Translations under genes and position numbers: made by a program | Virus record (IMG/VR): IMGVR_UViG_3300011725_000001 | Location: 62,001-93,023 of that record | Source: an uncultured virus (IMG/VR IMGVR_UViG_3300011725_000001) | Lineage: Duplodnaviria; Heunggongvirae; Uroviricota; Caudoviricetes | Strand: one strand, 5' to 3' | DNA length: 31,023 nt | Part shown: piece after piece, positions 347 to 17,940 of the stretch | Position numbering within the stretch: position 1 is the stretch's first letter | How the letters are laid out: each line of letters opens with the position of its first letter | Notes under the pieces: generated by a model | The model's database searches: none | What the model saw: the letters and a program-made list of their open reading frames with translations, nothing else | Told to the model about the DNA's origin: nothing

Positions 347-1636
347 ATGACTTCTCAAAATGTTCTCAAGCAGCTGCAGAAACTCCCTGAATGCCCCGTT
401 GACGATGAAGTACTTCACCAGACGTTTGTAACGGCCTATGGCCAGCTGAGTTCTATGCGCAAACGCCTGAAACTCGACGATCTTGAAAAGCGCCTGCTGG
501 ACAACTGCCTGTCTGCGCTGGAGCAGGTGCAGATTGATATCAACCTGCGCCTTAACCACGAAGCTGATACCTATAACGTGCTGGCAGATGCGCTGGAGCA
601 CGTCCAGCAGGAGCTGGACGGCCATTCCGTGCTGGCCGCAGAGATAGCTCAGATTCGCCTTGAGGCGAAGAACGCCGCTGATGAAGCCATTCAGGAAGCC
701 CGTATTCGTGAAGGTGAGGCCGAAAATCGCGCTATCAATGCTGAAAACGCCCGTGATCGCAACGCAGATGCGCTGGTTACCGCTCAGCTGGCGCTGACCA
801 CTCTGAATCAGGAATTTACACACTACCGCCGCAAGAATCCTGAACGCCTGGCGTCGGATCTGCAGGAGCGCGACAAAACCATTTCTCAGCACCGCGCCGA
901 CCGAAAAAAGCAGAGCGCACTGATACAGGAACTGCAGCAGAAGCTGAATATTGCAGATAAAGAAGTGGGTAAAGAGCGTCGCCTGCGAGGTGAGACGGCC
1001 AACGATCTCATTAAACTCACTGCCTCGCACAATCATTTGAAAGAGCGCGTGGAGTTTCACGACGGGCAGGAAGATGTGGCGCAATTCCTGCTGCAGCTGC
1101 CGGACGGCAGCGGTGACGTGGGCTGCTATATCTATAACTTCCACTTCGGGCTTAGCGTGTTTCACGGCATCCGTGACGTGTCCATTGAGACGGCAAATTT
1201 CCACTACCAGATCCGCACGGCGATGATGCTGGCAATGGACGTGGTGCCGGGTATATGGGGCAATCCGGTGTTCCGCATCCTGCCTGATTTACTCCCTATG
1301 TGGGACACGGCCATCAACGACGAACTGCATGAGCGCATCATGACCCGCCTGGCGCTGGACTTCCCACGACTCCACAAGCGCATCATGGACGGTAAGGCCG
1401 CGCCGGTCTCCGAGCTCGCTATCCCGGCGCGTGCGCTTAACGCGCTGGTAAAAGCCGGTTATGACACGGTGGCGGCTGTGGGCGGTGAGCTACCGCCGGA
1501 ACTGGTGAAGGTCAAAGGGCTAAGCGAGGCCACGGTAGACGAGATCCGCGCTGCTGTTAACAGCTGGTGCATTGCCTGGTCAAAAACCAATGGCGACATT
1601 GAAAACCTCAAAAACCCAAATACCAGACGTCGTTAA
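347..1636 (+). CDS. pmgS: P1 PmgS-like protein (coiled coil with C-terminal HhH/alpha-CTD-like domain)
   Basis: 429 aa; N-terminal DDLEKRLLDN...NHEADTYNVLADA and C-terminal AWSKTNG resemble recalled P1 PmgS; position upstream of lpa fits. Confidence 0.75.
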   Translation: MTSQNVLKQLQKLPECPVDDEVLHQTFVTAYGQLSSMRKRLKLDDLEKRLLDNCLSALEQVQIDINLRLNHEADTYNVLADALEHVQQELDGHSVLAAEIAQIRLEAKNAADEAIQEARIREGEAENRAINAENARDRNADALVTAQLALTTLNQEFTHYRRKNPERLASDLQERDKTISQHRADRKKQSALIQELQQKLNIADKEVGKERRLRGETANDLIKLTASHNHLKERVEFHDGQEDVAQFLLQLPDGSGDVGCYIYNFHFGLSVFHGIRDVSIETANFHYQIRTAMMLAMDVVPGIWGNPVFRILPDLLPMWDTAINDELHERIMTRLALDFPRLHKRIMDGKAAPVSELAIPARALNALVKAGYDTVAAVGGELPPELVKVKGLSEATVDEIRAAVNSWCIAWSKTNGDIENLKNPNTRRR

Positions 1637-2941: not shown

Positions 2942-3176
2942 GTTTCAGTACAGACCAGTTGCATTGGAGACAGCATCCCTAACAGACAGGACACGATATG
3001 CCGTTTTTAGCGTTTGCTGCAGAGCATCCAGGCCTCACCATCATTTACACGCTGGTGATCATTTACGGCTTTGAAACGGTTATTAAAGCCTGTCGCAGCG
3101 ACGCGAAGAAAAAGCGCCGCAAATAGCACGACACCCCAACAGGAAAGCGCATTAGCCGCTCAGTGCTCTCTCCGTT

Positions 3177-3317
3177 GTGGTGCATTCGCAGTTGCTGCTG
3201 CGATCGCAAGACTGGCCCCCGCTTCATCAATCGCACCGCATAGGGGTTTAAGCCGCCAGTAACCGAGTTGACCAGTCGCTTGAGAGGTTACTTGCCGGGT
3301 ATGGCACCGGCCACCAC
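3177..3317 (+). ncRNA. tRNA-shaped structured RNA
   Basis: GTGGTG/CACCAC closing stem, TCGCAG/CTGCGA 5' hairpin, large internal stems, GCCGG-GTATGGCA-CCGGC 3' hairpin. Confidence 0.6.
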
Positions 3318-3366
3318 TAACGCATAACAGATACGCACGCATAAGCGCTGACATGAAAATTCAGGC

Positions 3367-3531
3367 ATGATTAAAGCAATTCAGTCAGTTAATCAGGGTT
3401 TAAGCAGTATGGACACCAGCATGTACACCAAAACAGTCAGAGCGATGCAGTTTGTCATGTTTCATCTGCTGCTGAATGCCGGACTGTTTGCCGGTCATAA
3501 ATGGCTAATCGCACAGCTGGTGGCCAGCTGA
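3367..3531 (+). CDS. possible small hydrophobic protein (54 aa)
   Basis: Hand-translated MIKAIQSVNQ...FVMFHLLLNAGLFAGHKWLIAQLVAS; fills the gap between two RNA elements. Confidence 0.35.
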   Translation: MIKAIQSVNQGLSSMDTSMYTKTVRAMQFVMFHLLLNAGLFAGHKWLIAQLVAS

Positions 3532-3575
3532 TACAGGCCAACAGGTAAGAGCACCGGCAGACGGGCTTTTATCGT

Positions 3576-3676
3576 TGTGTTGAAGCTCAGCGGCAGCAGC
3601 GTTCGCTCTTTTATTCGGCCTGCAGGGCGGTGAAAGGGACAAGCGAAAGGTCGCCAGTTCATATCCGGCCAGCACA
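3576..3676 (+). ncRNA. tRNA-like RNA with a long hairpin replacing the anticodon arm
   Basis: Acceptor TGTGTTG/CAGCACA, D-like AAGCTCAGCGGCAGCAGC, TTCGCT...AGCGAA extended stem, AGGTC, GCCAG-TTCATAT-CCGGC; no encoded CCA. Confidence 0.6.
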
Positions 3677-3817
3677 ATGCCTACATAGCCACCCGGCCAG
3701 TCGCCGGGACAGGCCTCAGAACATCCCCGTGCGCACCCGGCGCCGGAATTAATCAGGTGAATTTTAATCACCGGCAATCGCCGGGGATTCTGCACGCCTG
3801 CACGACAGAGAGAGAGC

Positions 3818-4069
3818 ATGAAAAAGATCGCACTGATGGGCGCATTAATGGGAAGTCTCACCTGGCTGGCGCGCCGGCCGCCAACCGTTCCCGTGCTGCA
3901 GGTCAGGTCGCTGCAGCTGCCGGACCGCCCACAGCTGACCGCCGAGGACGGAATACAGCGTCTGGCCACCAGCATGGAAGAAGCGCATCAGCACCGCGAA
4001 CGTGAACGGCAGACCGCGCAGAAGCGCAGGCAGAGCGCCCACAAGCGCAAAATCAAACGGGGTTACTAA
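3818..4069 (+). CDS. hypothetical protein (basic C-terminus)
   Basis: 83 aa, GAGAG upstream, stop 2 nt before the next ATG. Confidence 0.6.
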   Translation: MKKIALMGALMGSLTWLARRPPTVPVLQVRSLQLPDRPQLTAEDGIQRLATSMEEAHQHRERERQTAQKRRQSAHKRKIKRGY

Positions 4070-4071
4070 GG

Positions 4072-4650
4072 ATGAACGATCAACAAATAAACGGAATGGT
4101 TGGCATGATTGCCGGCGCTGCAGGCAACTATACCGGTGACTATATGGCGCTGCTGAACGTTCTGGAGCACCTGGGCTTTGTGGTAACGCACCAGTCACAG
4201 ACCGCAACAGACTGGTCAGCCACGGTGAGCAAAGGCGCACTGACCATGACCGCCCGCGGGGAATCGCTTAATCATGCTGCCTGTCTGGCCATGCTGAAGC
4301 TGAACGATCTGATCCTGCGCAACGAGCAGCTGATAGACGAGGGCATGCTGAAATTCAGGGAAGAGGGCGCGCCGATAGCCGTCGCGCATGTGTGGCTCTC
4401 TGACGGCGCAAAAGTGGCACGTAAAGCGTGGGGAGAGGGAACACATCTGCGCCTCAACAGAGGCACCACACGGCACCCGCTAAACGGCACCGATATGTAC
4501 GGCGTGCCGGCGCGATTCTTTGACCACGATCCGCAGGCGTCCGTAACGCGTATGCCTCAGTTCGTTCTGACCAATACTGAGCAGCTGACAACGGCTGACT
4601 GGACGCCCGTAACCGCCGATCTGCTGGCAAGCGACTGGAGACTGATTTAG
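4072..4650 (+). CDS. phage ABA-sandwich-like domain fused to a DUF2829/Tad2-like domain
   Basis: C-terminal GAKVARKAW...WTPVTADLLASDW fits the DUF2829 pattern; N-terminal YTGD...WSA...ARGESLNHAACLAMLK fits the ABA-sandwich pattern. Confidence 0.7.
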   Translation: MNDQQINGMVGMIAGAAGNYTGDYMALLNVLEHLGFVVTHQSQTATDWSATVSKGALTMTARGESLNHAACLAMLKLNDLILRNEQLIDEGMLKFREEGAPIAVAHVWLSDGAKVARKAWGEGTHLRLNRGTTRHPLNGTDMYGVPARFFDHDPQASVTRMPQFVLTNTEQLTTADWTPVTADLLASDWRLI

Positions 4651-4826
4651 TGGAAACGCTAATACTTAAAGGGCTGGAACTGCTGGGCTGGCGTACGGAT
4701 CACTGCAAAGTCACATCGGTGGCATGCCGCAATAAGTCACTGTCTACAGGTGAGAAGCAGTCAGCAATGCTGGTGGAGGGGACCGTTGTGTTTGAGCTCA
4801 GGAATCTGAGTGGTGCGAAGTGTTAG
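4650..4826 (+). CDS. small hypothetical protein (58 aa), possibly truncated by the cassette
   Basis: GTG start overlaps the previous TAG; open to TAG at 4824-4826. Confidence 0.4.
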   Translation: METLILKGLELLGWRTDHCKVTSVACRNKSLSTGEKQSAMLVEGTVVFELRNLSGAKC

Positions 4827-5209
4827 CCAGTTGCATGCGTTCAATTCTTCAGGCTTGAAAAAATGAATGGTCCGCTATGAGCGAGGAGCGGAAGTTCAGT
4901 GTTACTAAGTAATCAATCCATTTTCAGTCACTGCCTAAACGGATTGATAGTATTAAGTTGCATCAACCCATTATCTTTCTACGAATTTTTACCTTTGGCT
5001 GCATCGACTTCGACATCCCTGTTAGCTTTATCAAAGATAAATTTTTCTCATTGGAAGAGGGCGTGACTATTCTTCTAATTTCTTAAAAAACATACAGTTG
5101 TGTTTTTTTTAGGTGTTTAGTTCATTAATTATTTAACTTTAAATTTAGATTTTTGTAATATTCTACAGTCCAATAAACCTGATCAAAACTAATCATAAGG
5201 AACTTCATC

Positions 5210-5923
5210 TTGGCTGAAGACACCCATGCTCCTCGTCAACCTATACAAGACCTCCTCGGCGCGTTACACGATAAGTTTGGTCACAACTTAAAAGAAGCTG
5301 TTGATGTTTCAACGGCACCTCTTTTAGAAGAGATAGATCTTAATTCCAGAATAATTGGTGCCTTTCAAGCTGCACTTATTAAAGAATACAAAGAAGACGC
5401 TCATAAAACAGGATGTGCTGAAATACTTGATGAGGTTTTCAGTGACTTTGCAATTGCAATGTACCTTAATTCAATCGGCCTTATTGTTCCGGCGCGAATG
5501 TCTACAAGGAGAGCGTTTGAGCTTGGACTTTCTGTCGTATACATGTGGGATATGCCACAGGAATACTGGGGTTGGAAAAAATGCGATCAAGATTTAAGTT
5601 TCTCTGCAATGGTTTCACACTTGAATTCTTTAGGTTATTGCGAATATATGCAGCAATTAAGCAAAGGGTCGCGAAATTCATGCTTTTGCGATCAAACAAC
5701 TTTTCAAAGGCTTTATAGAATTCTTAGTAATACTGTTCACGGTAAATTTGCCGATCTACCGGCATTGGCACCGGAGCGATTTTCAACAATTTCAAATGGA
5801 CTATTAGATCATCTACAGCTAATCGTCGAGACTCAGAAAGCTGTTATATCTTTACTTTTTGGCCGTTTCTCCGAGCTTGAGCAAAAAATTTGCACTATAT
5901 TTCCTCAAATCAAAAGGAATTAA
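5210..5923 (+). CDS. HEPN-like helical protein (putative RNase effector)
   Basis: TTG start after TAAGG; motifs RRAFE and LYRILSNTVHG fit the R..E / Y..LS..VH pattern of divergent HEPN families. Confidence 0.6.
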   Translation: MAEDTHAPRQPIQDLLGALHDKFGHNLKEAVDVSTAPLLEEIDLNSRIIGAFQAALIKEYKEDAHKTGCAEILDEVFSDFAIAMYLNSIGLIVPARMSTRRAFELGLSVVYMWDMPQEYWGWKKCDQDLSFSAMVSHLNSLGYCEYMQQLSKGSRNSCFCDQTTFQRLYRILSNTVHGKFADLPALAPERFSTISNGLLDHLQLIVETQKAVISLLFGRFSELEQKICTIFPQIKRN

Positions 5924-5927
5924 ATGT

Positions 5928-7688
5928 ATGATCATACAAACCACAACATCAAACCTGAGCGGAGAAGATCTCCTGCAAACAGCAAGATGTGAAGACTTGT
6001 TATACGACCAAATAAAGATGGTATCAGTATTAGGTGATTTTGAAAGGCGCATTATTGACTCGTTGAAAGGGAGTGGTGCCAACCTGCTTGAAGGTGCCCG
6101 AGGTGTTGGAAAATCTATGCTACTCCGCATGGCGGAAATTGAGTTAGACAAAGAATTTCCTGCAGATAAAAAACTTGGAGTCTATGTAAATTTCAAAACC
6201 AGTACTTTACTTGAAGGTGTTAAGGCTGATGAACGTGATGCTTTTCAGATTTGGGTTAATATAAAAATTTTAGAAGCCTTGCACGAAAAAATGCTTACAT
6301 TAAATCTAATTGCAAAAACTGGAGTAGCTGACCCATATCAGCGAGTTTTTGGGGTATCTTCCGTACTCGAAACAAAAGCAATGCTTGAAGAGAAAATCCA
6401 TTTGCTTCAAAAGTTGGCTTTTAGTAGAAATTCACATGCCGAAATTCTTGACCAAATAGGTGAAGATTTTCTAGCAAAAGCCCAAGACACCAGCTTTTTG
6501 GTGAATATAATAAAAGATATAGCGAATTTATTTTCACTTAAAAAAATAATTTTCTTTTTTGACGAGGCAGCTCATACTTTCATTCCTACCCAACAAAATA
6601 TTTTCTTCGAAATATTCAAGCTGTTGCACGGAGGTATGGTTGCCTGCAAAGCAGCAGTTTATCCAACAGTAACTAATTACGGTCGCAATTTTGAAGTTGG
6701 TCAAGATGCAATAGTTTTACCAGCAGTTAGATTCGATCCTGGTGAGTCTGGGCGTCGTGAGAATCGATTGCATTTTCGCTCGATTCTTGATAAGCGCTTA
6801 CCGAAGACAAGCAATTTAAGGAAAAAAATGTTCACAAGGGGCGCGGAGCTTGATCTTTGTATTGATCTCTCAAACGGTAACCCGAGAGCACTCCTACATA
6901 TATTGAATAGCGCGTTATCCAGTAATGCTTCACTATCAGAACGCTCAGTGGGATTAGCAGTCCAGAACTATGTTGATCAGGCATTAATTCCATATCATCA
7001 AAGTCTTTCCAAAAGACTTCCTAAGTACTCATCACATATTAGAGTTGGACTAGATTTATTGAGAGGTTATATCATTCCAGAAGTAAGGACAAAGAATCAC
7101 AGGAAGACAAAGAGTGAGTATCAGTCGGTGTTTTTTACACTGCAACGTGATATGTCGCCTAATTTAAAACTTTCTTTAGATATTCTAAGCTATTCAGGTA
7201 TGGTATCTCAACTTGGAACTGTTAAAATAGCTAACGGAACAGGGCCTCGATATATGATTAACCTAGCTATGATGGCTACTGAAAAAGGATTTGACACTCC
7301 AAAAACTTCAGATGCTATAGCTAGATTAAGCCTTACTGATTACCGTGAATTCTCATCGTCAGATACACAGATAAAAACTTATCTGGATTCACTCTTATTG
7401 CCGACTGAGACCTGTTCACAATGTAATGCTCCACTTCAGCAAAATGCGAAATTTTGTAGTGAATGTGGGAATAAAATTACTGAAGTTTCCATAGTTAGTA
7501 CTTTGCTTGAAGAGTCTATTAGTGAGTTATCAATAAGCGAACGATTGAAAGAAAGAATTCGACCAAAATTTTCCACTGTTGGATCGATAGTTCAAGCAAA
7601 GAGAGATGAACTTATGGCAATCTCTTATATTAAGGATGTTCGTTCAAGGATCATAAAGAATGCAGCTGATGAATTCATTTCCGGCTAA
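5928..7688 (+). CDS. ORC/CDC6- or STAND-like P-loop ATPase with C-terminal zinc ribbon and HhH (alpha-CTD-like) domain
   Basis: Walker A GARGVGKS, Walker B FFFDE, SNGNPR helix, CSQC...CSEC, terminal SISELSISERL...ELMAISYI; ATG 4 nt after the upstream stop. Confidence 0.8.
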   Translation: MIIQTTTSNLSGEDLLQTARCEDLLYDQIKMVSVLGDFERRIIDSLKGSGANLLEGARGVGKSMLLRMAEIELDKEFPADKKLGVYVNFKTSTLLEGVKADERDAFQIWVNIKILEALHEKMLTLNLIAKTGVADPYQRVFGVSSVLETKAMLEEKIHLLQKLAFSRNSHAEILDQIGEDFLAKAQDTSFLVNIIKDIANLFSLKKIIFFFDEAAHTFIPTQQNIFFEIFKLLHGGMVACKAAVYPTVTNYGRNFEVGQDAIVLPAVRFDPGESGRRENRLHFRSILDKRLPKTSNLRKKMFTRGAELDLCIDLSNGNPRALLHILNSALSSNASLSERSVGLAVQNYVDQALIPYHQSLSKRLPKYSSHIRVGLDLLRGYIIPEVRTKNHRKTKSEYQSVFFTLQRDMSPNLKLSLDILSYSGMVSQLGTVKIANGTGPRYMINLAMMATEKGFDTPKTSDAIARLSLTDYREFSSSDTQIKTYLDSLLLPTETCSQCNAPLQQNAKFCSECGNKITEVSIVSTLLEESISELSISERLKERIRPKFSTVGSIVQAKRDELMAISYIKDVRSRIIKNAADEFISG

Positions 7689-7773
7689 GAAAATACCTAT
7701 ATTAGCTCGGGTTATTTCATGTAAAAATAGCTTATTTGTGTTTGATTTATTATATTAAACACAAGGAATTATA

Positions 7774-7800
7774 GTGGGGATGTAATTTCAGTATCCCCAC
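7774..7800 (+). terminator. hairpin downstream of the ATPase gene
   Basis: GTGGGGAT...ATCCCCAC 8-bp stem; no strong T-tract. Confidence 0.4.
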
Positions 7801-8522
7801 AATATATCAAATTAATTACTAGCTAATTTGCAAATACCTGCACCTTTAATTATCAATCTTTATTTGTCTAAATTGGCAATTTTAGATAGGATGATGGTTG
7901 CCTGACAGTCTTTATTTCCATCGTTTCAAATATATTCAAGGCAGCTAACCCGCCGATTCGATGCATGCAATGTCCGCTTCTGGCACATAGCGGACGTTAT
8001 GTCCGCGTCTCATATTTTACCGATGCTAAGTTCATAAACTAAGCAAGGTTTACGGGGCAAAGGGTAAGTTTGATTACAGCGTGAATATGAGTAAGTCAGG
8101 CACGACGGAAGGATTACGGTTTGAGGATGAAGCCGGGGAGCCGTTGCCGGATAACCTTTACAGCCAGGTTGTCCACCGCTTAGCCCGTGACACTGTAACA
8201 AACTGGTCGAACACTGTCAGCCACCTGCTGAAAAGCTACCGCTGATCTGGATGGGCTGGCCGAACCAGCCCTGAATACAGGTTTCTAAAACAGTCTTTAG
8301 GGAACGCATACCCCAAAGTAGAAAAATTCAATTTTAGCTGGTACTAATTTTAGATAATTCACTCCGCGCAGAACTATTTACGCTCTGCTTCACGCCCCCG
8401 TAACAGCCCTTAACCTTAACCAAACTTAATCCAGCCAGACTGGCATAAATTCATAGCACGATGAAAATCTGAATGGGAAAACTCTAAAATGCGCGTTTTG
8501 TAATCCACGCAAAATTAACATC

Positions 8523-8539
8523 ATTTAGAATCGCATGTA
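8523..8539 (-). promoter_or_regulatory. candidate C1-type operator upstream of lpa
   Basis: Reverse complement reads TACATGCGATTCTAAAT; the P1 lpa promoter is C1-controlled. Confidence 0.6.
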
Positions 8540-8562
8540 TTATTTTTGTGGCGGAGTGATAC

Positions 8563-8970
8563 ATGGTCAAAAAGGTGAGCAGTATAGAGGTGGCGGATCT
8601 GCTGGTTCGCTATCGTGATTATATGACGGTAGCAGAGGTTACCCGGCTGGTGGAAGCAAAGTACCCGCACTTATTAGTCAATCCCGGTATCATCACTAAT
8701 ATTCTGCGCTCTTTTGTCCGCTCTCCGTTTGCGCAATGCTGCGTACACCCTGACGCTTATCCACGTCAGTACCGCCTGGATGCGTTAAAAGGCTACACCT
8801 TCAAAGCGCGCGGCCGCCCGGACATTGACTACGATTCGCTGATTGTTACCAGCGCCACGAAGCGCCGCCTCCAGTCAAAGGAAATGGAGCTACGTTCTGT
8901 ATGCGTAATGGCAAGGGAACTGATGGACAGGTGTATGCGGGGAAGGATAGAAAACACCCCGCTCATGTGA
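8563..8970 (+). CDS. lpa: late promoter activator Lpa homolog
   Basis: SIEVA...KYPHL...PRQY...VMAREL resembles recalled P1 Lpa; GGAG RBS; upstream of pacA. Confidence 0.75.
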   Translation: MVKKVSSIEVADLLVRYRDYMTVAEVTRLVEAKYPHLLVNPGIITNILRSFVRSPFAQCCVHPDAYPRQYRLDALKGYTFKARGRPDIDYDSLIVTSATKRRLQSKEMELRSVCVMARELMDRCMRGRIENTPLM

Positions 8971-8978
8971 ACGGGGTG
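8955..8978. terminator. hairpin between convergent lpa and parR
   Basis: CACCCCG...CGGGGTG. Confidence 0.5.
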
Positions 8979-8990
8979 GAGAAGGCAGGA

Positions 8991-9578
8991 TCAGCTTTTC
9001 GCGCCTGCCGGGTTTATCAGGCTGCGCCCTTTACCCGACTTTTTGCGCGTTGAGCCAAACACCTTCGCTTCACCTTCCGAATCTGCGTCAGGGGCAACTG
9101 ATGCAGACGTTTTCTCTTCAGGATTGCTGGCTTCGGCTGCCGGCTCTGCTGGTGGCACCGGGTTCTGCTCTGGCTCTGGCTCGCTTACAGTGGCCACGGG
9201 TTCCGGCTGTGATACCGGGGCTGCAGCTGGTGGCTCTGCAGGGGCTGGCGCGGCCTTTACCACTGGCGCTGGCGCAGGCTGTACGTCTGACTCCGGCAGC
9301 TCCGGTACATCTTCACACATAACGACGTTAATCAGGCTCAACAGACGCTTCATACGGTCGCGCTGGTTCATCTTCATGAACTTTTTGCCGTCAGTCGTCT
9401 GTATCAGCTCAATAAGGGTGCTAAGCCCCATTTCATCCACTGCGTACCCGTTGCGCACTATGCGCGCCAGATAGTTACGCTTATGGCTGTGGCTTGCCAG
9501 ACCATTGTATGACTTTAAAACGGCGGAACCGAAAAGCCCATCTTCTTCCAGGCCTACAATTCTTAATACCTGACTCAT
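8991..9578 (-). CDS. ParR/StbB-like partition adaptor with long Pro/Ala/Glu-rich linker
   Basis: Directly downstream of parM (2-nt gap); compact N-terminal domain, disordered linker, basic tail. Confidence 0.6.
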   Translation of the reverse strand: MSQVLRIVGLEEDGLFGSAVLKSYNGLASHSHKRNYLARIVRNGYAVDEMGLSTLIELIQTTDGKKFMKMNQRDRMKRLLSLINVVMCEDVPELPESDVQPAPAPVVKAAPAPAEPPAAAPVSQPEPVATVSEPEPEQNPVPPAEPAAEASNPEEKTSASVAPDADSEGEAKVFGSTRKKSGKGRSLINPAGAKS

Positions 9579-9580
9579 GA

Positions 9581-10708
9581 TTAACCTTTATCGCTGACGC
9601 GACTGGTAATATCGCTGACGTTGCTGGCGTCTTTTACCATATCGCGCAATTCATCTTCTGCATCCATCAGTGCAATGAATACGCCGCGTGCGTTAGCCTC
9701 TTCCGGGTTCTCCGGCACCATGACCACATCATGCCAGTCCGCTGTAAAGTCGGTCAGCCCTTCCTGACGGCCAGCCAGATAGTTAGCGCCGCCACCTACC
9801 ACCAGCACTGCATCAACCGCAATGGCGTTACGCAGCAGAGAGCGCACGTCGCGCCAGATTTCTGCTGCCAGCTCGCCTGCGGCCTGATTAATTACGCTGG
9901 TGACGTCGATACGCTTGGCTTTTGCTGCTTCCAGACGTGAGCCGATATAGCCCTGACGGATAATGTCGTCGATTGCACCTGGCGGGATCTCTTCTGCATT
10001 AAAAGAGCGGCCAGAGGTGACTTCAAACTCCTGCAGCAACACGCGAACGCGGTTGATCATCTTCTGAATGCCATGCTCAAAGCTGGCCTTTTTGATTGGA
10101 ACCAGTTCTTCATCAACGATAGCGATATCACAGGTGAAGCGGCCAATATCCACTACCAGAATGGTCTGCGCTTCTTCTTCCAGCTCCGGGAACTCAGATT
10201 GAGCCGCCAGAATAGCCGGGATTGCTTCCGGGAATACCTGTACGTGCTTAATGCGCGCTGGCTGTACGTCGTCGCTGTAGTTGCGCACAGGCTTTTTGAG
10301 GCTGGCAACTTTCTTATCAATACGTGCCTGATTGATTACGCCGTTGCCGCTGTAGTACTGCCCGATAGGCAGCGTCTCACCAAGAATGACGTCGCAGTCC
10401 ACGATACCCGCGCGTTTCAGGCATTCATGCACCAGCACGCGGTGAGGCGCGGAGATCTGATAGTCCGGGTCGCAGGTGTCGTAGAGGTCGGTAAAGCCCT
10501 TTTTAACGACGGTGTATGCGGTCTCTTTGCCAAAGTCGCCTTCTGTCAGCCAGATAGAGGAGGCGTTGCTGGAAATAGACTGCTGGTGGCCTACTTCAAC
10601 AAGGGATGGCGTGATACGAGAGACCCACTGACCTTTTTCCTCATAGGCGATAGTCACGTTTCCGGAACCAGCATCCACTGCTACTAAAACTGCTTTCTTG
10701 TTAGACAT
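9581..10708 (-). CDS. parM: actin-like plasmid segregation ATPase ParM/StbA
   Basis: Actin-fold motifs VAVDAGSG, VFPEA, VVDIGRFTCD, VVGGGA, ANARG. Confidence 0.9.
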   Translation of the reverse strand: MSNKKAVLVAVDAGSGNVTIAYEEKGQWVSRITPSLVEVGHQQSISSNASSIWLTEGDFGKETAYTVVKKGFTDLYDTCDPDYQISAPHRVLVHECLKRAGIVDCDVILGETLPIGQYYSGNGVINQARIDKKVASLKKPVRNYSDDVQPARIKHVQVFPEAIPAILAAQSEFPELEEEAQTILVVDIGRFTCDIAIVDEELVPIKKASFEHGIQKMINRVRVLLQEFEVTSGRSFNAEEIPPGAIDDIIRQGYIGSRLEAAKAKRIDVTSVINQAAGELAAEIWRDVRSLLRNAIAVDAVLVVGGGANYLAGRQEGLTDFTADWHDVVMVPENPEEANARGVFIALMDAEDELRDMVKDASNVSDITSRVSDKG

Positions 10709-10893
10709 TTATTTACCCAATGGTTAATTTCGTACTTCGATTGAGACATAAAAATAACACAGTTTTTTATAAAAGTGTCTCTGCATCTGACAAATTCAGA
10801 TGCGTTTGCGCGCTTCGTGATCATTATTGTGATCACTGCAAAATACAGACTCCTTACCATCCCGGTTTATTGGCCTCATTTGAACGATAAACC

Positions 10894-12189
10894 ATGTCCA
10901 AAGTTAACTGGGATGAACACAGAAGGGCTTTCATTGAGCAGAAGGCCGAGAGCGGGATAACCGTCAAAGAGTACTGCGAGTACCATGGCCTGCCATTCAA
11001 CACGGCCCGCCGGGAGCTGAACGGTAAAGCGCTGGCCGCGATGGGTGATCAAAGTGGTGATCACAATCATGATCATTCGGATGATCACGCTTCTGATCAT
11101 CAAAATGATCACACCAGAAAAGACGACCTCACCATACGCCGGAATGGGCGCAAACTCAGGCACAGCGCGGCTTTAGAGGGGGTGCTGGAACCACGCGCTG
11201 ACGCAGCGCCGCAGCCTGGCGGGAAGAAAAAGCCTAATGCTTCACATGCCAAAAAGATCATAAATGACGGTGATCAAAGTGAAGGACGCCCGAAGCACAC
11301 CGCAAAGCCCCGCGGCGAGGGTAAACCGTTTGAGGAAGGCCATGAAACCAAGCTGGTTGCCAACCGGCGCGCCTACCCGCGACCGCAGGATTATGAGTCC
11401 GCGTTAGAGGTGCTGGGCGAGGGGCTGGAAGCCAGCGCCATGACGGCGCTATTTGACTCGCTGGCGCATATGGACCTGCTTAAACGCACCACGGCGCGTG
11501 CGGTAGAGCTGTTTGAGCTTGAAGCCGAAAACATGGCCAGCGGCAAAAAGAAGGATGACGACGGCGGCGGCGGCGGCGGACCACACCCTATCCTGAAAAT
11601 GACCAAGCTGATGATTGAAGTCGGCTATCTGGTTAATGACCACGCCTCACGGGTAGCGGCGATCGCCGGCAGTACCGATAAGAACCGGCGCGACAATGAG
11701 AAGCATGCGCTGACGCATAATGCCGGCGAGGTTATCAGCCGCGCATACCAGCTGCGCGAGGCGGAGGACTGGGATCTGCTGCAGACGGCAGAGTACATCG
11801 AGCGCCACGGCATCAAACTGCCTGAGTCACTGTCCAGACGTCTCGAAAACGAGCTCAAGAACGCCGAGCCACCGGTAGATGAAAGCGGTCAGGTCAGCGA
11901 GGCGGAGCTGGAACTGGAGGCGCAGGAGTATCGCCGGCAACAGGCCGCGTCCGCTGCCTTTGTTGAGACGCGTCGCGCTGAGGTTGCCGTGCTGGTGGAC
12001 AAAGGCGGGTTTGGTGACGTCCAGGCAGACGGAGAGCTGCGCGCCGGCGAAACCGCAGGCGAGGGCAATCTGAGCGGCAACTTTGACTATGAGGCTACTG
12101 CTGACCTGTACGACGACGATATCCCGCCGGAGATATCCGTTATGACCGATACGATATCCGTTATGAAAGACAAGGATGGCGCAGAATGA
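10894..12189 (+). CDS. pacA: terminase small subunit PacA
   Basis: N-terminal HTH WDEHR...TVKEYCEYHGLPFNTARREL; internal TGATCA cluster; overlaps the pacB start. Confidence 0.88.
   Translation: MSKVNWDEHRRAFIEQKAESGITVKEYCEYHGLPFNTARRELNGKALAAMGDQSGDHNHDHSDDHASDHQNDHTRKDDLTIRRNGRKLRHSAALEGVLEPRADAAPQPGGKKKPNASHAKKIINDGDQSEGRPKHTAKPRGEGKPFEEGHETKLVANRRAYPRPQDYESALEVLGEGLEASAMTALFDSLAHMDLLKRTTARAVELFELEAENMASGKKKDDDGGGGGGPHPILKMTKLMIEVGYLVNDHASRVAAIAGSTDKNRRDNEKHALTHNAGEVISRAYQLREAEDWDLLQTAEYIERHGIKLPESLSRRLENELKNAEPPVDESGQVSEAELELEAQEYRRQQAASAAFVETRRAEVAVLVDKGGFGDVQADGELRAGETAGEGNLSGNFDYEATADLYDDDIPPEISVMTDTISVMKDKDGAE
11046..11276. other. pac packaging-initiation site (Dam-site hexamer array inside pacA)
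   Basis: TGATCA at 11046, 11058, 11070, 11082, 11094, 11106, then AGATCA 11255 and TGATCA 11271; P1 pac is a TGATCA/G hexamer cluster within pacA. Confidence 0.8.
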
Positions 12190-13697
12190 GCGGAAAAAAA
12201 CGCATCAGGAGCGTCACCACGGACCCGCGCTGGCGCGATATGGTGATCCGCTATCGCTATGACTGGGCGACGGCGGTAGTCGAGCTATTTGGCCTTATCC
12301 CCACCTGGCAGCAGGAAGAGATACTTAACTCCGTACAGGAGACCGGAAGCCAGACTACAGTAACGTCCGGCCACGGTACCGGCAAATCATCCCTGACGGC
12401 TATGATGCTGCTGATCTACATGATCATGTTCCCGGATGCGCGCGTAATCATCGTGGCCAACAAAATCGGGCAGGTTAAAACGGGCGTATTCAAATACGTC
12501 AAAACCTACTGGGCTAACGCCGCCAAACGTCACCCCTGGCTACAGAACTACTTCACCCTGACGGACACCATGTTTTATGAGAAGTCGCGTAAGGGGATAT
12601 GGGAAGTGCTCTGTAAGGGCTTCCGCTTGGGTAATGAAGAAGCGCTGGCCGGCGAGCACGCCGCGCATATCCTGCTGATCCTCGATGAAGCGTCAGGTAT
12701 CTCTGATAAAGCGATAGCTATCATGCGTGGTGCGCTGACAGAGACCGATAACCGCATGCTGATGATGTCGCAGCCCACGCGGCCAAGCGGCTATTTCTAT
12801 GACTCGCACCATTCGTTAGCCCGTAACCCCGATAACCCGGACGGGATCTGGAATGCCATTGTCCTTAATTCTGAGGAGGCGCCGCACGTCACCCTGAAGT
12901 TCATCAGGGAAAAGCTGCTGGAGTACGGCGGGCGCGACTCTCTGGAGTACATGGTGAAGGTGCTGGGGCGCTTCCCGCGCAACATCAGCGGCTATCTGCT
13001 GGGGCGTGACGAGTGCGATCGCGCTGCACGGCGCAAAGTATACCTGGAGAAAGGCTGGGGCTGGGTGGCTACTGCTGACGTCGGTAACGGGCGCGATAAG
13101 TCGATACTTAACATCTGCAGGGTGTCCGGGCATGGTGATGCGCGGCGCGTGGTGTCGTTTAAGCTGGTGGAAATGCCTGGCACGATGGACCCGATATCCT
13201 TCGGTGACTTCATCGCTAACGAGTGCACGCATGAGCGCTATCCGGGGATCACGATTGCCGTCGATGGTGATGGCGTGGGTTCTGCCACGCTGAAGCAGCT
13301 GGAGCGCCGGGGCGTGAATGCGGTCAATATCCGCTGGGGGCAACCGCCGTTCAGTAAGAAGGTGCGCGAGCGCTTCAAGAATCAGCGCGCCTGGGCGAAC
13401 ATCATGGCCGCTGATGCTGTCCGGTCCGGCAGGATGCGCATAGACGCCTCTCAGCACACAGCGGAGCAGGGATCGAAGATACCGTATTACATGGATGAAA
13501 TGGGGCGGATCATGATGGTGCCGAAGCCTCAGATGCGCCAGAAACTCAACATCAAGTCGCCTGACCGCTGGGACACGTACTGCTTTATCTTCCTGATTGG
13601 TTACCGTCCGGCAGAGGCAGAGATTGACGAAGGCATGGCAGACTTTGCGGAGAGCAAACTCAAAGAGCTGGAGGAGCTGGACGCGCTGCTGGCGTGA
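12186..13697 (+). CDS. pacB: terminase large subunit PacB
   Basis: Walker A SGHGTGKS, LAGEH, Walker B LILDEASG, nuclease motifs ADVGNGRD and SPDRWD. Confidence 0.95.
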   Translation: MSGKKRIRSVTTDPRWRDMVIRYRYDWATAVVELFGLIPTWQQEEILNSVQETGSQTTVTSGHGTGKSSLTAMMLLIYMIMFPDARVIIVANKIGQVKTGVFKYVKTYWANAAKRHPWLQNYFTLTDTMFYEKSRKGIWEVLCKGFRLGNEEALAGEHAAHILLILDEASGISDKAIAIMRGALTETDNRMLMMSQPTRPSGYFYDSHHSLARNPDNPDGIWNAIVLNSEEAPHVTLKFIREKLLEYGGRDSLEYMVKVLGRFPRNISGYLLGRDECDRAARRKVYLEKGWGWVATADVGNGRDKSILNICRVSGHGDARRVVSFKLVEMPGTMDPISFGDFIANECTHERYPGITIAVDGDGVGSATLKQLERRGVNAVNIRWGQPPFSKKVRERFKNQRAWANIMAADAVRSGRMRIDASQHTAEQGSKIPYYMDEMGRIMMVPKPQMRQKLNIKSPDRWDTYCFIFLIGYRPAEAEIDEGMADFAESKLKELEELDALLA

Positions 13698-13713
13698 CCA
13701 CCAGCCAGGCAAT

Positions 13714-13739
13714 AAAAAAGGGCGCTTGTGCGCCCTTTT
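13714..13739. terminator. bidirectional terminator between pacB and c1
   Basis: AAAAAAGGGCGC-TTGT-GCGCCCTTTT. Confidence 0.8.
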
Positions 13740-13751
13740 CATGCTGTCCGG

Positions 13752-14828
13752 TTATACCTTTCTGAGCTTCTGCGCACGCTCCACCAGCTGCTGCAGAGTA
13801 TGGCCACTGCGGCGACCAAACTCATTTGCATAACGCGCGCGCATTTCTGGCACGGTCAGCAATTCAGTGTCGCCGGCTGCTGTTTTCATGTTCATCAGTT
13901 CACGATCCATGGCATTCAGTTCAGCAACGGCTTCTGCGCCAGCTTTAATCTTCTCCTGCGCTTTCTGCGCCTGCTCCTGCGTGTCGGAGCGCAGCATCAG
14001 CGCCTCGCTGCGCTTTTTAAACAGGCGTTCGCGCTGGTAGATAGCCGTCTCAATGACGTAAATCTGCTTGTGGTGGAGCTTGGCGGCGTCCACGTCGTCC
14101 ATCAGGTAAACAGTGGCGGACGGCAGCACAGCGCATGGCAGCGGCTTTATCAGGTCAAATACTGATACTGCACCGCTGGAGGGATTCAGGTTTGCCGTGA
14201 AATCCGTTTTAAGATCCATGTGCTCGCTGTAAATCAGCATGCCGTGAGCGCCGTAACGGTAGTTATCCACGTTTCTTTCATCGTTCGGGCTATCAAACCG
14301 CGCCATAACCTGCGTATCGAAGTAGTTGCTCATGCGCAGGCGGTAAAGCGCCCCTTCCGGTGCGTTTTCAAAGCCCTTCATTTCCTCTTTCAGTGAGAGG
14401 ATAGCGCCGGCAGCAAAAGGAACCTTATCCAGCTTACGCAGCTGCTGGTGATAGCGGTTCAGAATGCTCTCACGGGTGGCTTTGCCTGATGACGTTCCGG
14501 GAAAACGGGTTACTGTTACCTTGCGCGGGTTTACCATGATCGTCGGTACCGGCGAGTAGCCCGAGATATGGACGGCCAGCGTTTTAGACTGGGTCTCTGC
14601 GCGCTTGGCGTCCGCCAGGTCTGCAAAGCGCTGCCATTCGGTAATCAGGTGCTGTGCACGGTCCAGAATCTTTTTGTCGTTCGTGAAGGCAATCGGGCGT
14701 GCATCTTCGCCATTGGCGTTTTCCTCTGAGTACACGATTAGAGGTGTAATGAGGCCGAACCATTCACGCTGAACCTGCAGGAAATGTTTATAGCTTTGTT
14801 CAAATTCTACGTCGCTAAACTTAGGCAT
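13752..14828 (-). CDS. c1: C1 master repressor homolog
   Basis: YSPVPTIMVNPRKVT and SVFDLIKPLPC..LPSATVYLMDDVD align with recalled P1 C1; convergent to pacB as in P1; start taken at the ATG of MPKFS. Confidence 0.8.
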   Translation of the reverse strand: MPKFSDVEFEQSYKHFLQVQREWFGLITPLIVYSEENANGEDARPIAFTNDKKILDRAQHLITEWQRFADLADAKRAETQSKTLAVHISGYSPVPTIMVNPRKVTVTRFPGTSSGKATRESILNRYHQQLRKLDKVPFAAGAILSLKEEMKGFENAPEGALYRLRMSNYFDTQVMARFDSPNDERNVDNYRYGAHGMLIYSEHMDLKTDFTANLNPSSGAVSVFDLIKPLPCAVLPSATVYLMDDVDAAKLHHKQIYVIETAIYQRERLFKKRSEALMLRSDTQEQAQKAQEKIKAGAEAVAELNAMDRELMNMKTAAGDTELLTVPEMRARYANEFGRRSGHTLQQLVERAQKLRKV

Positions 14829-15201
14829 AATGTGTTCCAAAAATTTTTAGGCGGCAGCTGTGCAGTCTCTCTGGACTTAATAAGCGGAAATATAGACGGG
14901 CAAAGAAATGCTGTAAAACGATAACTTCTTAGAAACCCCTATATTAAGAATAGTCCGTATTTAGTGACCTTATAAATTATCTACAAGTCCGCATGTCTCT
15001 CACAGGTGTTATCGCCGCCGTTACGCTTTATGTTACCTGCAATGTTACGAGTCAGAACTATAACCCGAAGTAACAAACCAGACTGCCAGATGATCATATA
15101 TGAAGCCCTGAGACCGATCACGCGGAAAAACCTCCCGGATTCTAAATTTTACACTTTTCTGACGCTTCAGCACGCGCCGCGCCTGTTTTTGGCCGGAAAA
15201 T

Positions 15202-15235
15202 GAAACTTTAAATAATTACTCTTATATAAAGTTTG
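15202..15235. other. 34-bp lox-type recombination site (rox/pox-like)
   Basis: GAAACTTTAAATA-ATTACTCT-TATATAAAGTTTG: 13-8-13 with 11/13 arm symmetry, about 200 bp upstream of the recombinase. Confidence 0.88.
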
Positions 15236-15437
15236 ATAGCTTTCATGTATGCTTGATCAGTAGTTGGATGATCAAATGATCAGTTGGTGCAAAACGTGGC
15301 ATTCTGTACAGATTCTGAGCTAAACAGCAGTGAGGCATAGTCAGACGCCGCTACGTGAAATCTGACGCATAACCCCCCTGACGTTTTGATAACTTTTGCG
15401 TAGCGACGCCATGCCGTTTTTTAAGGAAAATATATAA

Positions 15438-16469
15438 ATGAAAGATTTGGCGGAAATTAAAAGCAGCGTGATTCCGGCGGAATTAACCGTATTAACGCCG
15501 CAGGACGTCGCTAATAATCTGCGCCGCTTTATTGCGGATAAAGGCGCTTATTCTGAGAACACCTTTCGTGACCTGCTTTCGGTGATCCGCCGCTGGGCGA
15601 CGTGGTGCAGCGCGCGCGGCCTGACGTATCTGCCGATCGACCCGGAGCTGGCCCGCATTTACTTTTTGTCCATGGCGGAAAGCGGGCTTGCATCGAGCAC
15701 CATCGAAAAGCACTACGCCATGATGAACATGCTGTGCAAGCAGTGCGGCCTGCCGCAGCTGCTGCTGAACGTGGACGTGCAGCGCGCCATGAAGCGCATC
15801 AAGCGCGAGGCCGTGGTGGGCGGCGAGCGCACCGGCCAGGCTATCCCGTTCCGGCTACCGGATCTGCAGCTGCTGTCGCACATCATGGGGCGATCCGACA
15901 AACTGACCGATATGCGCAATCTGGCGTTTCTCTACCTGGCCTACAACACCCTTTGCCGCATGTCCGAACTGAGCCGCATCCGGGTGCGCGATCTGGATAT
16001 CGACGAAAGCGGCCATGTGATCGTTAACCTGACCCACACAAAAACGATGGTGACCGCTGCCGGCGTGATAAAGCACCTGAGCAAATCTGCCGCCGGCCAC
16101 CTGCTGCGCTGGCTGGACGTGTCCGGGCTGATTAACTGCCCCGACGCCGTGATATTTGGCCCCGTCCGCCACAACAACACAGCCGGCGTATCGGAAAAGC
16201 CCATGAGCGCCCCGGCCACGGAGAAGATTTTCAAAGATGCGTGGGATTTGCTGGGTAAAGATCCGGTTAAAGACAATAAAGGGCGCTACACGAAATGGTC
16301 CGGCCATAGTGCGCGCGTGGGCGCGGCGATGGATATGGCGGAGCGCGATGCTACCATCACGCAGATCATGCAGGAAGGCACCTGGACTGACCCAAAAACC
16401 GTTATGCGCTACCTGCGCCGCTCTGAAAGCCAGAAAGGCAAAATGTCCGGGATTCTCGACGGAGAATGA
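15438..16469 (+). CDS. cre: Cre/Dre-family tyrosine recombinase
   Basis: 343 aa; catalytic R (LCRMSE), K (HTKT), GHSARVG, W (GTW), Y (MRYLR); closely resembles recalled Dre. Confidence 0.95.
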   Translation: MKDLAEIKSSVIPAELTVLTPQDVANNLRRFIADKGAYSENTFRDLLSVIRRWATWCSARGLTYLPIDPELARIYFLSMAESGLASSTIEKHYAMMNMLCKQCGLPQLLLNVDVQRAMKRIKREAVVGGERTGQAIPFRLPDLQLLSHIMGRSDKLTDMRNLAFLYLAYNTLCRMSELSRIRVRDLDIDESGHVIVNLTHTKTMVTAAGVIKHLSKSAAGHLLRWLDVSGLINCPDAVIFGPVRHNNTAGVSEKPMSAPATEKIFKDAWDLLGKDPVKDNKGRYTKWSGHSARVGAAMDMAERDATITQIMQEGTWTDPKTVMRYLRRSESQKGKMSGILDGE

Positions 16470-16480
16470 CCGATATGAAA

Positions 16481-16497
16481 CACACATAATTCTAAAT
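16481..16497 (+). promoter_or_regulatory. candidate C1-type operator downstream of cre
   Basis: CACACATAATTCTAAAT, at the position equivalent to P1 Op2a. Confidence 0.6.
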
Positions 16498-16563
16498 AAA
16501 TTACCGTTGTAACTTGGCGTTTTTTAGCCCACAATTCAGGCCGTCCCGCACCTGCGATTAACG

Positions 16564-16896
16564 ATGGCCACACAACAGATACTGCTGCACCGCACCTTTG
16601 ACATAGACGCCCACCAGCTGAGCTTTACCGCCATTATGCGCGGCGGAGTTGCGCTGGTGGAGTTTGGTGTCAGCACCCTGTCAGAAGCAGCCCCGCTGCT
16701 TACCCTCGATAAGACCTACCGCGACCGACACAGCGCCTGCTACTACGTTTCCAACATCACCGACCGCGCCGCAAATAAACTCCTGGAGTATTACAGAAAG
16801 GAATTTGCCGGATTTGTCGGGCTGGTGGACGACGCATTCAGCCAGCAGGGTAAACCCATGTTCAGCAGCCGCCAGCGGCTTTTTGCGGGGCAATAA
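16564..16896 (+). CDS. hypothetical phage protein
   Basis: 110 aa; TAATG coupling to the next ORF. Confidence 0.7.
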   Translation: MATQQILLHRTFDIDAHQLSFTAIMRGGVALVEFGVSTLSEAAPLLTLDKTYRDRHSACYYVSNITDRAANKLLEYYRKEFAGFVGLVDDAFSQQGKPMFSSRQRLFAGQ

Positions 16897-17354
16897 TGTC
16901 TGTTACCGGCAATGTCGTCAGCTTCTTCGTCGCAGTGGCGACCGCACACGACGTCTCTAATCCTATCGGCACCTATTCCAACGGCTCTTACGTTGACTCC
17001 TGCACCGGACATTACTGGGGCGAGGAGATATTCAGGCACCCCAAAACCATTGCCAGCCTGGCGAAGTATGGCGCGATTGAGTACGCCCGCTGCCAGGACC
17101 GGGGCGAAACAATACGTTTTGAGGATCGGCGCGAAGTGCTGGACGAGTTTGCCCGCGGCTACAGCGATGCTGAGGACGGCTTGTGCACCGAGGAAGGGGC
17201 GATTGATTCCGCCGTTCCGCATGCCTATCTGTCAGGCGCGCAGCACTGCCGCAAACGCATAAAGCTGGGGGGCATGGCCTACCGTCTGGATCAGGGGCGC
17301 GTGTGTCATGGCGTGGAGTGTGCTGATACGGGCGAGAAGTGGACGCAGGACTAA
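16896..17354 (+). CDS. hypothetical phage protein
   Basis: 152 aa; coupled start; followed by hairpin 17361-17382. Confidence 0.7.
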   Translation: MSVTGNVVSFFVAVATAHDVSNPIGTYSNGSYVDSCTGHYWGEEIFRHPKTIASLAKYGAIEYARCQDRGETIRFEDRREVLDEFARGYSDAEDGLCTEEGAIDSAVPHAYLSGAQHCRKRIKLGGMAYRLDQGRVCHGVECADTGEKWTQD

Positions 17355-17360
17355 AGAAAA

Positions 17361-17937: not shown

Positions 17938-17940
17938 GTC

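Follow-up and report, generated by a model that had tools for sequence, protein, structure and literature searches.

A 93-kb Pantoea-type phage-plasmid carries, on a 3.2-kb island that interrupts one of its backbone genes, a two-gene cassette that is most likely an uncharacterised abortive defence module, in which an NTPase is paired with an effector. The first gene encodes a small helical protein, and the second encodes an ORC/Cdc6-like ATPase with a zinc ribbon near its end, followed by a terminal domain similar to the C-terminal domain of the RNA polymerase alpha subunit (alpha-CTD). Judging by association, we lean on balance toward an anti-phage role, in which the island would guard the lysogen and the phage-plasmid through an abortive or growth-arrest mechanism.

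Coordinates refer to the window, the whole 31,023-nucleotide stretch that was analysed (positions 62,001 to 93,023 of IMG/VR record IMGVR_UViG_3300011725_000001). The features of the island and its borders are as follows.

4650..4804, + strand: 5' remnant of the split backbone gene, from blastn against the sister plasmids
4805..8050, no strand: AT-rich cargo island, 3246 bp, in place of 49 bp of sister-plasmid backbone
4870..4892, + strand: left 23-nt palindromic motif (REP-like), left edge of the transferable unit
4893..5209, + strand: AT-rich leader upstream of gene 1, which moves with the cassette (covered by a contig of run X6)
5210..5923, + strand: gene 1, TTG start, 237 aa, all-helical, with AAGGAA 7 nt upstream
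5928..7688, + strand: gene 2, ATG start, 586-aa ORC/Cdc6-like AAA+ ATPase (PF24389)
6093..6116, + strand: Walker A of gene 2, residues 56-63, GARGVGKS, invariant alignment columns
6546..6575, + strand: Walker B region, residues 207-216, a hydrophobic strand then D212-E213, invariant columns
7413..7466, + strand: C4 zinc ribbon C496/C499/C510/C513, from Pfam and the alignment
7485..7685, + strand: C-terminal (HhH)2 domain, alpha-CTD-like, from the model and from structure and sequence matches
7973..7995, - strand: right 23-nt motif, inverted copy, right edge of the transferable unit
8051..8245, + strand: 3' remnant of the split backbone gene, from the junction alignment

The cassette is compact and compositionally foreign to its surroundings. 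A sequence-only reading had described an AT-rich operon of two genes with a 4-nt gap, and the open reading frames and base composition bear this out: both genes lie on the + strand (5210-5923 and 5928-7688), the gap is 4 nt because the gene 1 stop ends at 5923, and cassette GC is 0.381 against 0.539 in the flanks (38% and 54%). Along the window, GC runs at 0.35-0.39 over 5001-8000 and at 0.51-0.60 on either side. The two genes are translationally coupled and strictly co-inherited. A promoter presumably lies within the leader (4893..5209); we infer rather than place it, since a simple consensus promoter scan gave no sigma-70-like site there, upstream of gene 1. Terminator-like sites were no commoner than in shuffled sequence in a consensus terminator scan, and Rfam at E<=1 returned no credible RNA family within 4500-8600. 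Two 151-nt pieces of gene 2 (7320-7470 and 7516-7666) occur with 0 differences in the assembly of metatranscriptome run X20, which is no proof of transcription; comparisons with this and other sequencing runs (X2, X6, X20) rest on assembled contigs. Within the window, the cassette comes after a Tad2-like anti-Thoeris gene.

Comparison with sister plasmids delimits the island. It is missing from the 97%-identical plasmids pPSP-26e (L001) and CP060164 (L002), and blastn aligns both of its flanks to pPSP-26e at 96-97% identity, the left (window 3137-4804) to 7283-8951 and the right (window 8051-12165) to 9001-13108. The backbone gene that the island splits is uninterrupted in pPSP-26e, where it forms a 132-aa ORF (8797-9195). 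Phage records held no match to the backbone at 8000-20000, and E. coli genomes and plasmid or phage collections held no near-identical DNA for the cassette at 5100-7800.

The ends of the transferable unit are marked by the 23-nt motif and its inverted copy, a sequence with 2 matches in the window and 0 in 100 shuffles. In contigs from run X6 the cassette extends from 4876 to 7995 at about 94% identity, with unlike sequence beyond. Two other accounts of the ends were considered. An integron attC site would form a single imperfect hairpin at the 3' end, a reading that folding does not support, shuffled sequence folding as well as these regions do (z -0.09 to -1.3), and an apparent empty site in run X2, joining 4892 to 7972, has just 24 letters on its shorter side and is best explained by the repeat motif.

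The pair travels as a unit across distant hosts. It is kept in 15/15 complete loci examined, where the distance from the end of gene 1 to the start of gene 2 is -22 to +9 nt as listed and cassette GC is below that of the flanks in every case (15/15). Gene 1 lies directly upstream of the ATPase in all seven genome loci (7/7), a 228-240-aa ORF holds that position in 10/10 viral-contig loci, and an HMM built from close gene 1 homologues alone recognises 8/8 distinct distant upstream ORFs. Because the gene 2 family numbers at least 521 cluster representatives and the gene 1 family at least 870 (50% identity, E<=1e-3), the features of the cassette lie far beyond chance. Among hosts that include Pantoea-type bacteria, Pseudomonas and Nitrosomonas, the ATPase keeps 85-93% identity; the pair spans several bacterial phyla, and its carriers are P2-like, P4-like, lambdoid and phage-plasmid elements. 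Some neighbourhoods are of the defence type. In L019 the pair sits between replication gene A and portal/terminase in a P2-like prophage, beside a C5 methylase and DUF4928; in L017 it follows a P4-type primase; in L020 its neighbour is a TIR_2 protein; in L011 it occupies a lambdoid regulatory/late region; and in L004 it has NERD, Fic and Mrr genes on one side and HipA on the other. In L003, L007/L008 and L009 the surroundings are ordinary metabolic or housekeeping genes. The pair is horizontally mobile low-GC cargo that lands in the cargo spots of prophages, satellites and genomic islands.

By its motifs, gene 2 encodes an ORC/Cdc6-type AAA+ P-loop ATPase whose ATP-binding and hydrolysis motifs are intact. 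It matches the ORC-CDC6-like family PF24389 at 42.7 bits (E 4.3e-11; curated gathering cut-off 27), with distant homologues at 30.5-59.4 bits, and Zn_Ribbon_1 at 26.9 bits (cut-off 25). The Walker A and B motifs and CxxC-CxxC ribbon picked out by the earlier reading are invariant in 38/38 aligned homologues: G56-x-R58-G59-x-G61-K62-S63, F211-D212-E213 and all four cysteines, C496/C499/C510/C513. The ribbon is missing in distant homologues of 535 aa. A profile of the whole protein searched against solved structures gave zinc-ribbon matches only, and Pfam detected no nuclease or other effector domain in it.

Family resemblance to Orc1/Cdc6 initiators, with which gene 2 shares the AAA+ core, and residence on plasmids and phages could suggest plain mobile-element housekeeping, with gene 2 as a replication initiator and gene 1 as its accessory. 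We consider this very improbable: near-identical sister plasmids do without the pair, the island disrupts a backbone gene, some chromosomal sites contain no other mobile genes, and gene 1 is always present alongside. Unlike Orc1/Cdc6, gene 2 is cargo without a role in replicating its carrier, has another C-terminal DNA-binding module and comes with an obligatory partner gene.

The tail of gene 2 is predicted to adopt the (HhH)2 fold of the alpha-CTD. About residues 520-586 were modelled, with a pLDDT of about 97 over the last 60 residues; the model matches RNA polymerase alpha-CTD structures, alpha-CTD sequences match too, and the best solved relatives of a tail profile are RNA polymerase alpha C-terminal domains (E 1.5e-5), in line with the alpha-CTD-like terminal HhH proposed from the sequence. 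The carboxy terminus, E-F/Y-I/L-S-G, is invariant, and the second hairpin is without its usual glycines in the window's clade. Gene 2 shares this fold and profile-level similarity with the alpha-CTD but is not an RNA polymerase component, and its tail fails the alpha-CTD family model: PF03118 (RNA_pol_A_CTD) has no match on gene 2 at E<=1, and distant homologues reach 13-15 bits, under the 23.8 cut-off. When the full 93-kb record was searched in six frames, the sole PF03118 match was an ORF at window 347-1636, and hhalign put the probability at just 9.8% when the tail was aligned with the alpha-CTD-domain protein of the window itself.

Among the phage proteins that target the alpha-CTD are T4 Alt/ModA-type ADP-ribosyltransferases and P2 Ogr / P4 Delta-type activators of late genes. 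The tail might be a decoy, an idea of the sequence-only reading that is widened here: it would mimic the polymerase domain, so that phage proteins that dock on or modify the alpha-CTD to take over transcription hit the tail instead and trip the ATPase. Their capture would turn on the ORC-like ATPase and set the HEPN-like effector free. We hold this specific trigger to be improbable.

Gene 1 may encode a HEPN-like effector, possibly RNA-cutting. The R..E and Y..LS..VH motifs of the sequence-only reading proved invariant in 31/31 aligned close homologues, as R100, R101 and E104 and as Y169-R170-x-L172-S173-N-T175-V-H177-G178-K179. R100, E104, D128, Y169, S173, H177, G178 and R219 are kept even in distant homologues, and because the polar residues R100, E104, D128, S173, H177 and R219 are invariant down to 13-26% identity, they look more like an active site than like a binding surface. 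The HEPN catalytic motif reportedly follows the rule Rx4-6H. For the HEPN assignment of the sequence-only reading, R170-x6-H177 is present in the window's gene 1 and in all 31 close homologues, and no curated HEPN model matches. H177 is invariant, and R170 becomes G in the L012 and L014 lineages. Pfam gave 0 families at E<=1 and no HEPN family among 14 members at E<=10, PADLOC and NCBIfam gave 0 families, Foldseek gave no match to the gene 1 model at E<=1e-3, and a gene 1 profile searched against solved structures gave nothing meaningful.

Gene 1 evolves faster than the ATPase, with 54-76% identity in the same loci where the ATPase keeps 85-92%, a pattern that a sensor role for gene 1 would fit too. 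The roles could be reversed or the chemistry different, gene 1 being no nuclease but a DUF5677-related sensor or adaptor, and the ATPase using its DNA-binding domains on phage DNA itself, for instance to block replication or transcription. This arrangement draws on that faster divergence, on a weak recurrent similarity to DUF5677 (7/84 representatives, all under cut-off) and on the ORC/Cdc6-like ATPase with its DNA-binding-type tail. The active-site-like invariance of gene 1 and the want of a detectable nuclease or effector domain in the ATPase weigh against it, and we think it unlikely. Against a defence role stand this DUF5677 similarity and the loci set among metabolic or housekeeping genes; one DUF5677 gene was tested in a preprint and is absent from the defensive ORFs reported in the accessible part of that source (PMC12632615).

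The tightly coupled two-gene layout, carriage by plasmids, prophages and islands, and a possibly HEPN-like gene 1 fold, as in HEPN toxins such as 8xdj_A, would also fit a toxin-antitoxin or addiction pair, in which the ATPase restrains a gene 1 toxin and the pair stabilises its mobile element with no phage sensing. Here, however, the partner is a 586-aa multi-domain ATPase, neither a small antitoxin nor a nucleotidyltransferase, sister plasmids are maintained without the pair, and chromosomal copies lie between housekeeping genes (L007); we regard addiction as a minor contender. The HEPN-MNT type of toxin-antitoxin does not fit, as the minimal nucleotidyltransferase is missing and gene 2 has no nucleotidyltransferase domain.

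An NTPase governing an RNase has precedents in phage defence. In the anticodon nucleases PrrC and RloC, an NTPase module controls a HEPN-type RNase and infection is aborted; each of them is one polypeptide, has ABC-type ATPase domains and is linked to restriction systems, and PADLOC found no similarity to them.

The earlier reading had recognised no named system in this architecture, and PADLOC and NCBIfam likewise yield none that matches. PADLOC-DB 2.0.0 gave 0 families at E<=1 for either protein, and distant homologues gave weak P-loop matches to mad8 and PDC-S01 (E 7.5e-5 or worse). Literature searches found nothing on the gene pair, PF24389 or "ORC-CDC6 family AAA ATPase", and for ORC-CDC6 with anti-phage they returned a BREX paper alone (PMC12839542). 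The accessible text of that paper describes BREX-related "Type-1 BR" systems, in which HEPN is fused to ORC/Cdc6-type DUF499/BrxC-like ATPases. As the cassette would if gene 1 is of HEPN type, these defence systems join an ORC/Cdc6-STAND-type AAA+ ATPase to a HEPN module and to nucleic-acid-binding domains at the C-terminus (PMC12839542), a likeness at the level of described architecture. In Type-1 BR, as far as that text goes, the HEPN domain is N-terminal on a much larger ATPase with methyltransferase and PglZ-type partners (PMC12839542), whereas the cassette has a separate helical gene, two genes only, and a zinc ribbon and alpha-CTD-like C-terminus. The same text describes BREX PglW as having an alpha-CTD-like helical domain (PMC12839542), and the tail of one distant homologue (L015, residues 463-524) weakly matches positions 794-855 of the PADLOC PglW model (E 0.007).

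Two further ATPase families come near gene 2 at low scores. DS-41 of DefensePredictor (NF053860) is a validated anti-phage P-loop ATPase, given in the accessible part of its source as a single gene of about 500 aa (cds 5322-6830 in the supplement; PMC13092281); gene 2 matches it weakly and locally over residues 284-363 (28.8 bits, cut-off 370). That part of the source records neither a partner gene nor a zinc ribbon or alpha-CTD-like tail for DS-41 (PMC13092281). Sll1717-family ATPases (NF047389) score 28 bits, with a cut-off of 75.

We return to the preferred reading, an abortive module of ATPase and effector, which the sequence-only interpretation had anticipated; that interpretation is partly supported. 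In this module the ATPase would act as sensor and switch, its tail, ribbon and middle region binding nucleic acid or a phage-made complex. ATP-dependent assembly would then release or activate gene 1, the presumed effector. Its likeliest identity is a HEPN-type RNase in which H177 works together with R170 and/or R100 and E104. RNA cleavage by gene 1 would stop growth of the infected cell.

If the pair is protective, it would represent a widespread defence family missed by current catalogues, and its two-gene design of ORC/Cdc6 ATPase plus effector would be an addition to the NTPase-sensor systems already known. A family of 230-aa proteins that has no Pfam model would gain a function as well. 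The decoy, if true, would amount to guard or decoy immunity against transcription hijacking, a new class of trigger for AAA+/STAND-type sensors. More generally, the alpha-CTD-like domain, found also in BREX PglW, would be a testable candidate for a sensing or DNA-binding element that recurs in bacterial immune systems.

The AT-rich stretch of the window encodes a real, conserved and mobile two-gene module, laid out as follows.

5210-5923, plus strand: gene 1, TTG start with an AAGGAA ribosome-binding site upstream, 237 aa
5928-7688, plus strand: gene 2, ATG start, 586 aa

Only 4 nt separate the two genes, and GC content across ~5000-8000 is 0.35-0.39 against 0.51-0.60 in both flanks of the window's GC profile. 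The sequence-only reading had described a two-gene AT-rich operon with a 4-nt gap, and the ORF coordinates, gap and GC dip all match it.

The window makes up the final 31 kb of a 93-kb virus record that carries direct terminal repeats. Among its backbone genes are those for a terminase, a ParM/StbA segregation protein, a tyrosine recombinase, a dUTPase and a late promoter activator of P1 type. This carrier is 96–97% identical to two non-mobilisable plasmids of 87–96 kb, pPSP-26e (Pantoea sp.) and CP060164 (CP060164.1 is recorded under Acinetobacter venetianus), and is accordingly a phage-plasmid. Both sister plasmids lack the gene pair. Window positions 3137-4804 and 8051-12165 align to neighbouring stretches of pPSP-26e, and the island between them (4805-8050, 3246 bp) replaces 49 bp of a backbone ORF (132 aa) whose upstream neighbour is a Tad2-like (anti-Thoeris) gene. 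The pair is therefore acquired cargo, and its arrival split a backbone gene.

Other features were seen along the carrier. The Tad2-like domain protein (4072-4650, plus strand) is encoded immediately before the insertion point; defence-like cargo thus adjoins a counter-defence gene of the carrier. A second variable spot lies at 3120-3137, where the sister plasmids carry ~1.2 kb absent from the window, with a gene annotated SPFH/Band 7 or serine protease. Further low-GC patches (0.39–0.43) at 22970-26086 on the minus strand encode one Fic-domain and one DUF2971 protein, with an Acyl_transf_3 acyltransferase gene between them in a normal-GC stretch; these are likely extra morons or cargo of the phage-plasmid. 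CP060164.1, according to its annotation table only, has an ISEc9/blaCTX-M-3/blaTEM-1/Tn3 block (20172-28195) inserted beyond the dUTPase region, at a place that other genes occupy in the window.

A 23-nt palindromic motif brackets the island, and a second inverted pair lies elsewhere in the 93-kb record.

4870-4892, plus strand: left motif copy
7973-7995, minus strand: right, inverted motif copy
42748-42770 and 46446-46468 of the whole record (2249-2271 and 5947-5969 of L025, a stretch of it): second motif pair, inverted, 3.7 kb apart

The two island copies, with 7-bp arms and a 9-nt oriented loop, share 20 of 23 letters; two motif matches occur in the window, as against none in 100 shuffles. 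Contigs assembled from another organism's sequencing run also contain this cassette, ~94% identical over 4876-7995 and flanked on either side by unrelated sequence, so the segment that moves runs from motif to motif. Inside the second pair lie genes for an MFS transporter, an alpha/beta hydrolase and a LysR regulator; from one motif copy to the other, this segment matches part of a Kosakonia cowanii plasmid at 99.6% identity, and it is missing from pPSP-26e. Both pairs bracket cargo that the sister plasmids lack. The motif is a common repeat, with exact matches in at least 120 viral contigs and seven matches in an 11.7-kb Kosakonia plasmid stretch (both strands counted, some overlapping), and it does not adjoin the gene pair in the other homologous loci fetched; it therefore belongs to this enterobacterial lineage and not to the gene pair. 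Three further contigs have a plus/minus motif pair around 0.5–2.5 kb of small genes, unannotated or glyoxalase-type. No transposase lies inside the bracketed segments. An integron attC reading of the cassette ends was not supported by folding of the end regions; the brackets here are a REP-like palindrome. Such units may move by REP-like or pdif-module-like mechanisms.

Gene 2 belongs to PF24389 (ORC-CDC6-like), above the curated Pfam cut-off, with a zinc ribbon at residues 496–516. Walker A (G56..K62-S63), Walker B (D212-E213), the four cysteines and much of the C-terminal 60 residues, to the terminal E-F-I-S-G, are invariant in 38 homologues with identity down to 58%. PADLOC gave no match, NCBIfam gave only local matches far below threshold (DS-41, 28.8 vs 370 bits; Sll1717-type ATPases, 28 vs 75 bits), and among solved structures zinc ribbons alone were related by sequence. 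PDB chain 9qtr_i, a 68-aa "conserved protein", aligns weakly (E 0.02–0.04) with residues ~495–560, spanning the ribbon and first tail helices, a hint that ribbon plus HhH may also form a protein of its own.

The sequence-only reading of the tail as an alpha-CTD-like HhH domain is right as a description. A model of residues 490–586, for which 14 sequences were used, reaches pLDDT 87 overall and ~97 across the helical domain. Foldseek ranks the alpha-CTD of B. subtilis first (3gfk_B, probability 1.0, rmsd 1.6 Å), with RAD51 N-terminal domains close behind. Against solved chains, the tail's sequence profile ranks alpha-CTD first (E 1.5e-5), and RNA polymerase alpha subunits make up 51 of 58 chains at E<=10; the likeness is more specific by sequence than by structure search. 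Pfam's alpha-CTD model does not reach gene 2; it and HHH_5 weakly match two distant homologues. In distant 535-aa homologues the zinc ribbon is absent and the tail is retained; its hairpin is of the classical G-h-G type, and the carboxy terminus is unchanged. R539 aligns with the DNA-contacting arginine of alpha-CTD, the target of ADP-ribosylation by T4. Alignment rows read by eye show mostly R or K here in the close family; the distant one has W. The extreme terminus E-F/Y-I/L-S-G (residues 582–586, window 7671-7685) is invariant from 93% to ~25% identity, which suggests that the free end is functional in its own right, for example as a docking peptide. Separately, a 429-aa backbone protein (347-1636, plus strand), kept in the sister plasmids and annotated hypothetical there, matches Pfam RNA_pol_A_CTD at residues 351–404 (E 7.8e-7, above cut-off); the same genome thus encodes both a phage alpha-CTD-domain protein and an alpha-CTD-like ATPase tail.

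Gene 1 matched no Pfam, PADLOC or NCBIfam model. Its family has 55 close cluster representatives and 870 at E<=1e-3 in an exhaustive profile search, nearly all of 220–250 aa, and A95, R100, E104, D128, Y169, S173, V176, H177, G178 and R219 are kept at 13–26% identity. R170-x6-H177 fits the HEPN motif rule, but R170 is glycine in two distant lineages. Because R170 varies, H177 falls within the sole modelled segment with pLDDT <50, and weak recurrent sub-threshold matches (7 of 84 representatives) point to DUF5677, we call gene 1 "HEPN-like, unproven".

What the data show directly is the domain make-up of the module, its strict pairing, and its movement as low-GC cargo into known cargo spots. 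Gene 1 lies immediately upstream of the ATPase in 7 of 7 genome loci (Pseudomonas, Phytopseudomonas, Nitrosomonas, Geobacteraceae and others), and a 228–240-aa ORF does so in 10 of 10 viral-contig loci, at ATPase identities of 25–91%; all eight distinct distant upstream ORFs are recognised by an HMM made from the close gene 1 family. Spacing is -22 to +9 nt, and cassette GC is below flank GC, in 15 of 15 loci. Within the same loci gene 1 shows 54–76% identity and the ATPase 85–92%, so gene 1 is diverging faster.

Settings of the pair in homologous loci
L019 (similar in L018): P2-like prophage, between replication gene A and portal/terminase, adjoining a C5 methylase and DUF4928
L017: downstream of a P4-type primase
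L020: adjoining a TIR-domain gene
L011: lambdoid regulatory/late region
L004: genomic island with NERD, Fic, Mrr and HipA genes
L005: transposase in the neighbourhood
L006: MvaT silencer in the neighbourhood
L003, L007-L009: among ordinary genes

We found no publication naming the pair, and neither PADLOC 2.0.0 nor NCBIfam 20.0 has a model for it; the PADLOC novelty check proposed earlier, once run, matched neither protein. The nearest described design comes from BREX-related systems (PMC12839542), in which HEPN is fused to DUF499 ATPases of the ORC/Cdc6 type, whereas here the helical gene 1 product and gene 2 product are separate. The same paper describes PglW with an alpha-CTD-like domain, and PMC13092281 lists DS-41 as a validated single-gene DefensePredictor system.

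We lean slightly towards a mechanism in which the ATPase would sense infection via its DNA-binding-type modules and, with ATP, would activate the gene 1 product, probably an RNase of HEPN type, which would arrest the infected cell. PrrC and RloC operate along similar lines. Less likely alternatives are an addiction module, reversed roles in which gene 1 would not be a nuclease, an alpha-CTD decoy function of the tail, and a replication function. As a defence system the module is a good candidate, which would represent a new form of the NTPase-plus-effector type.
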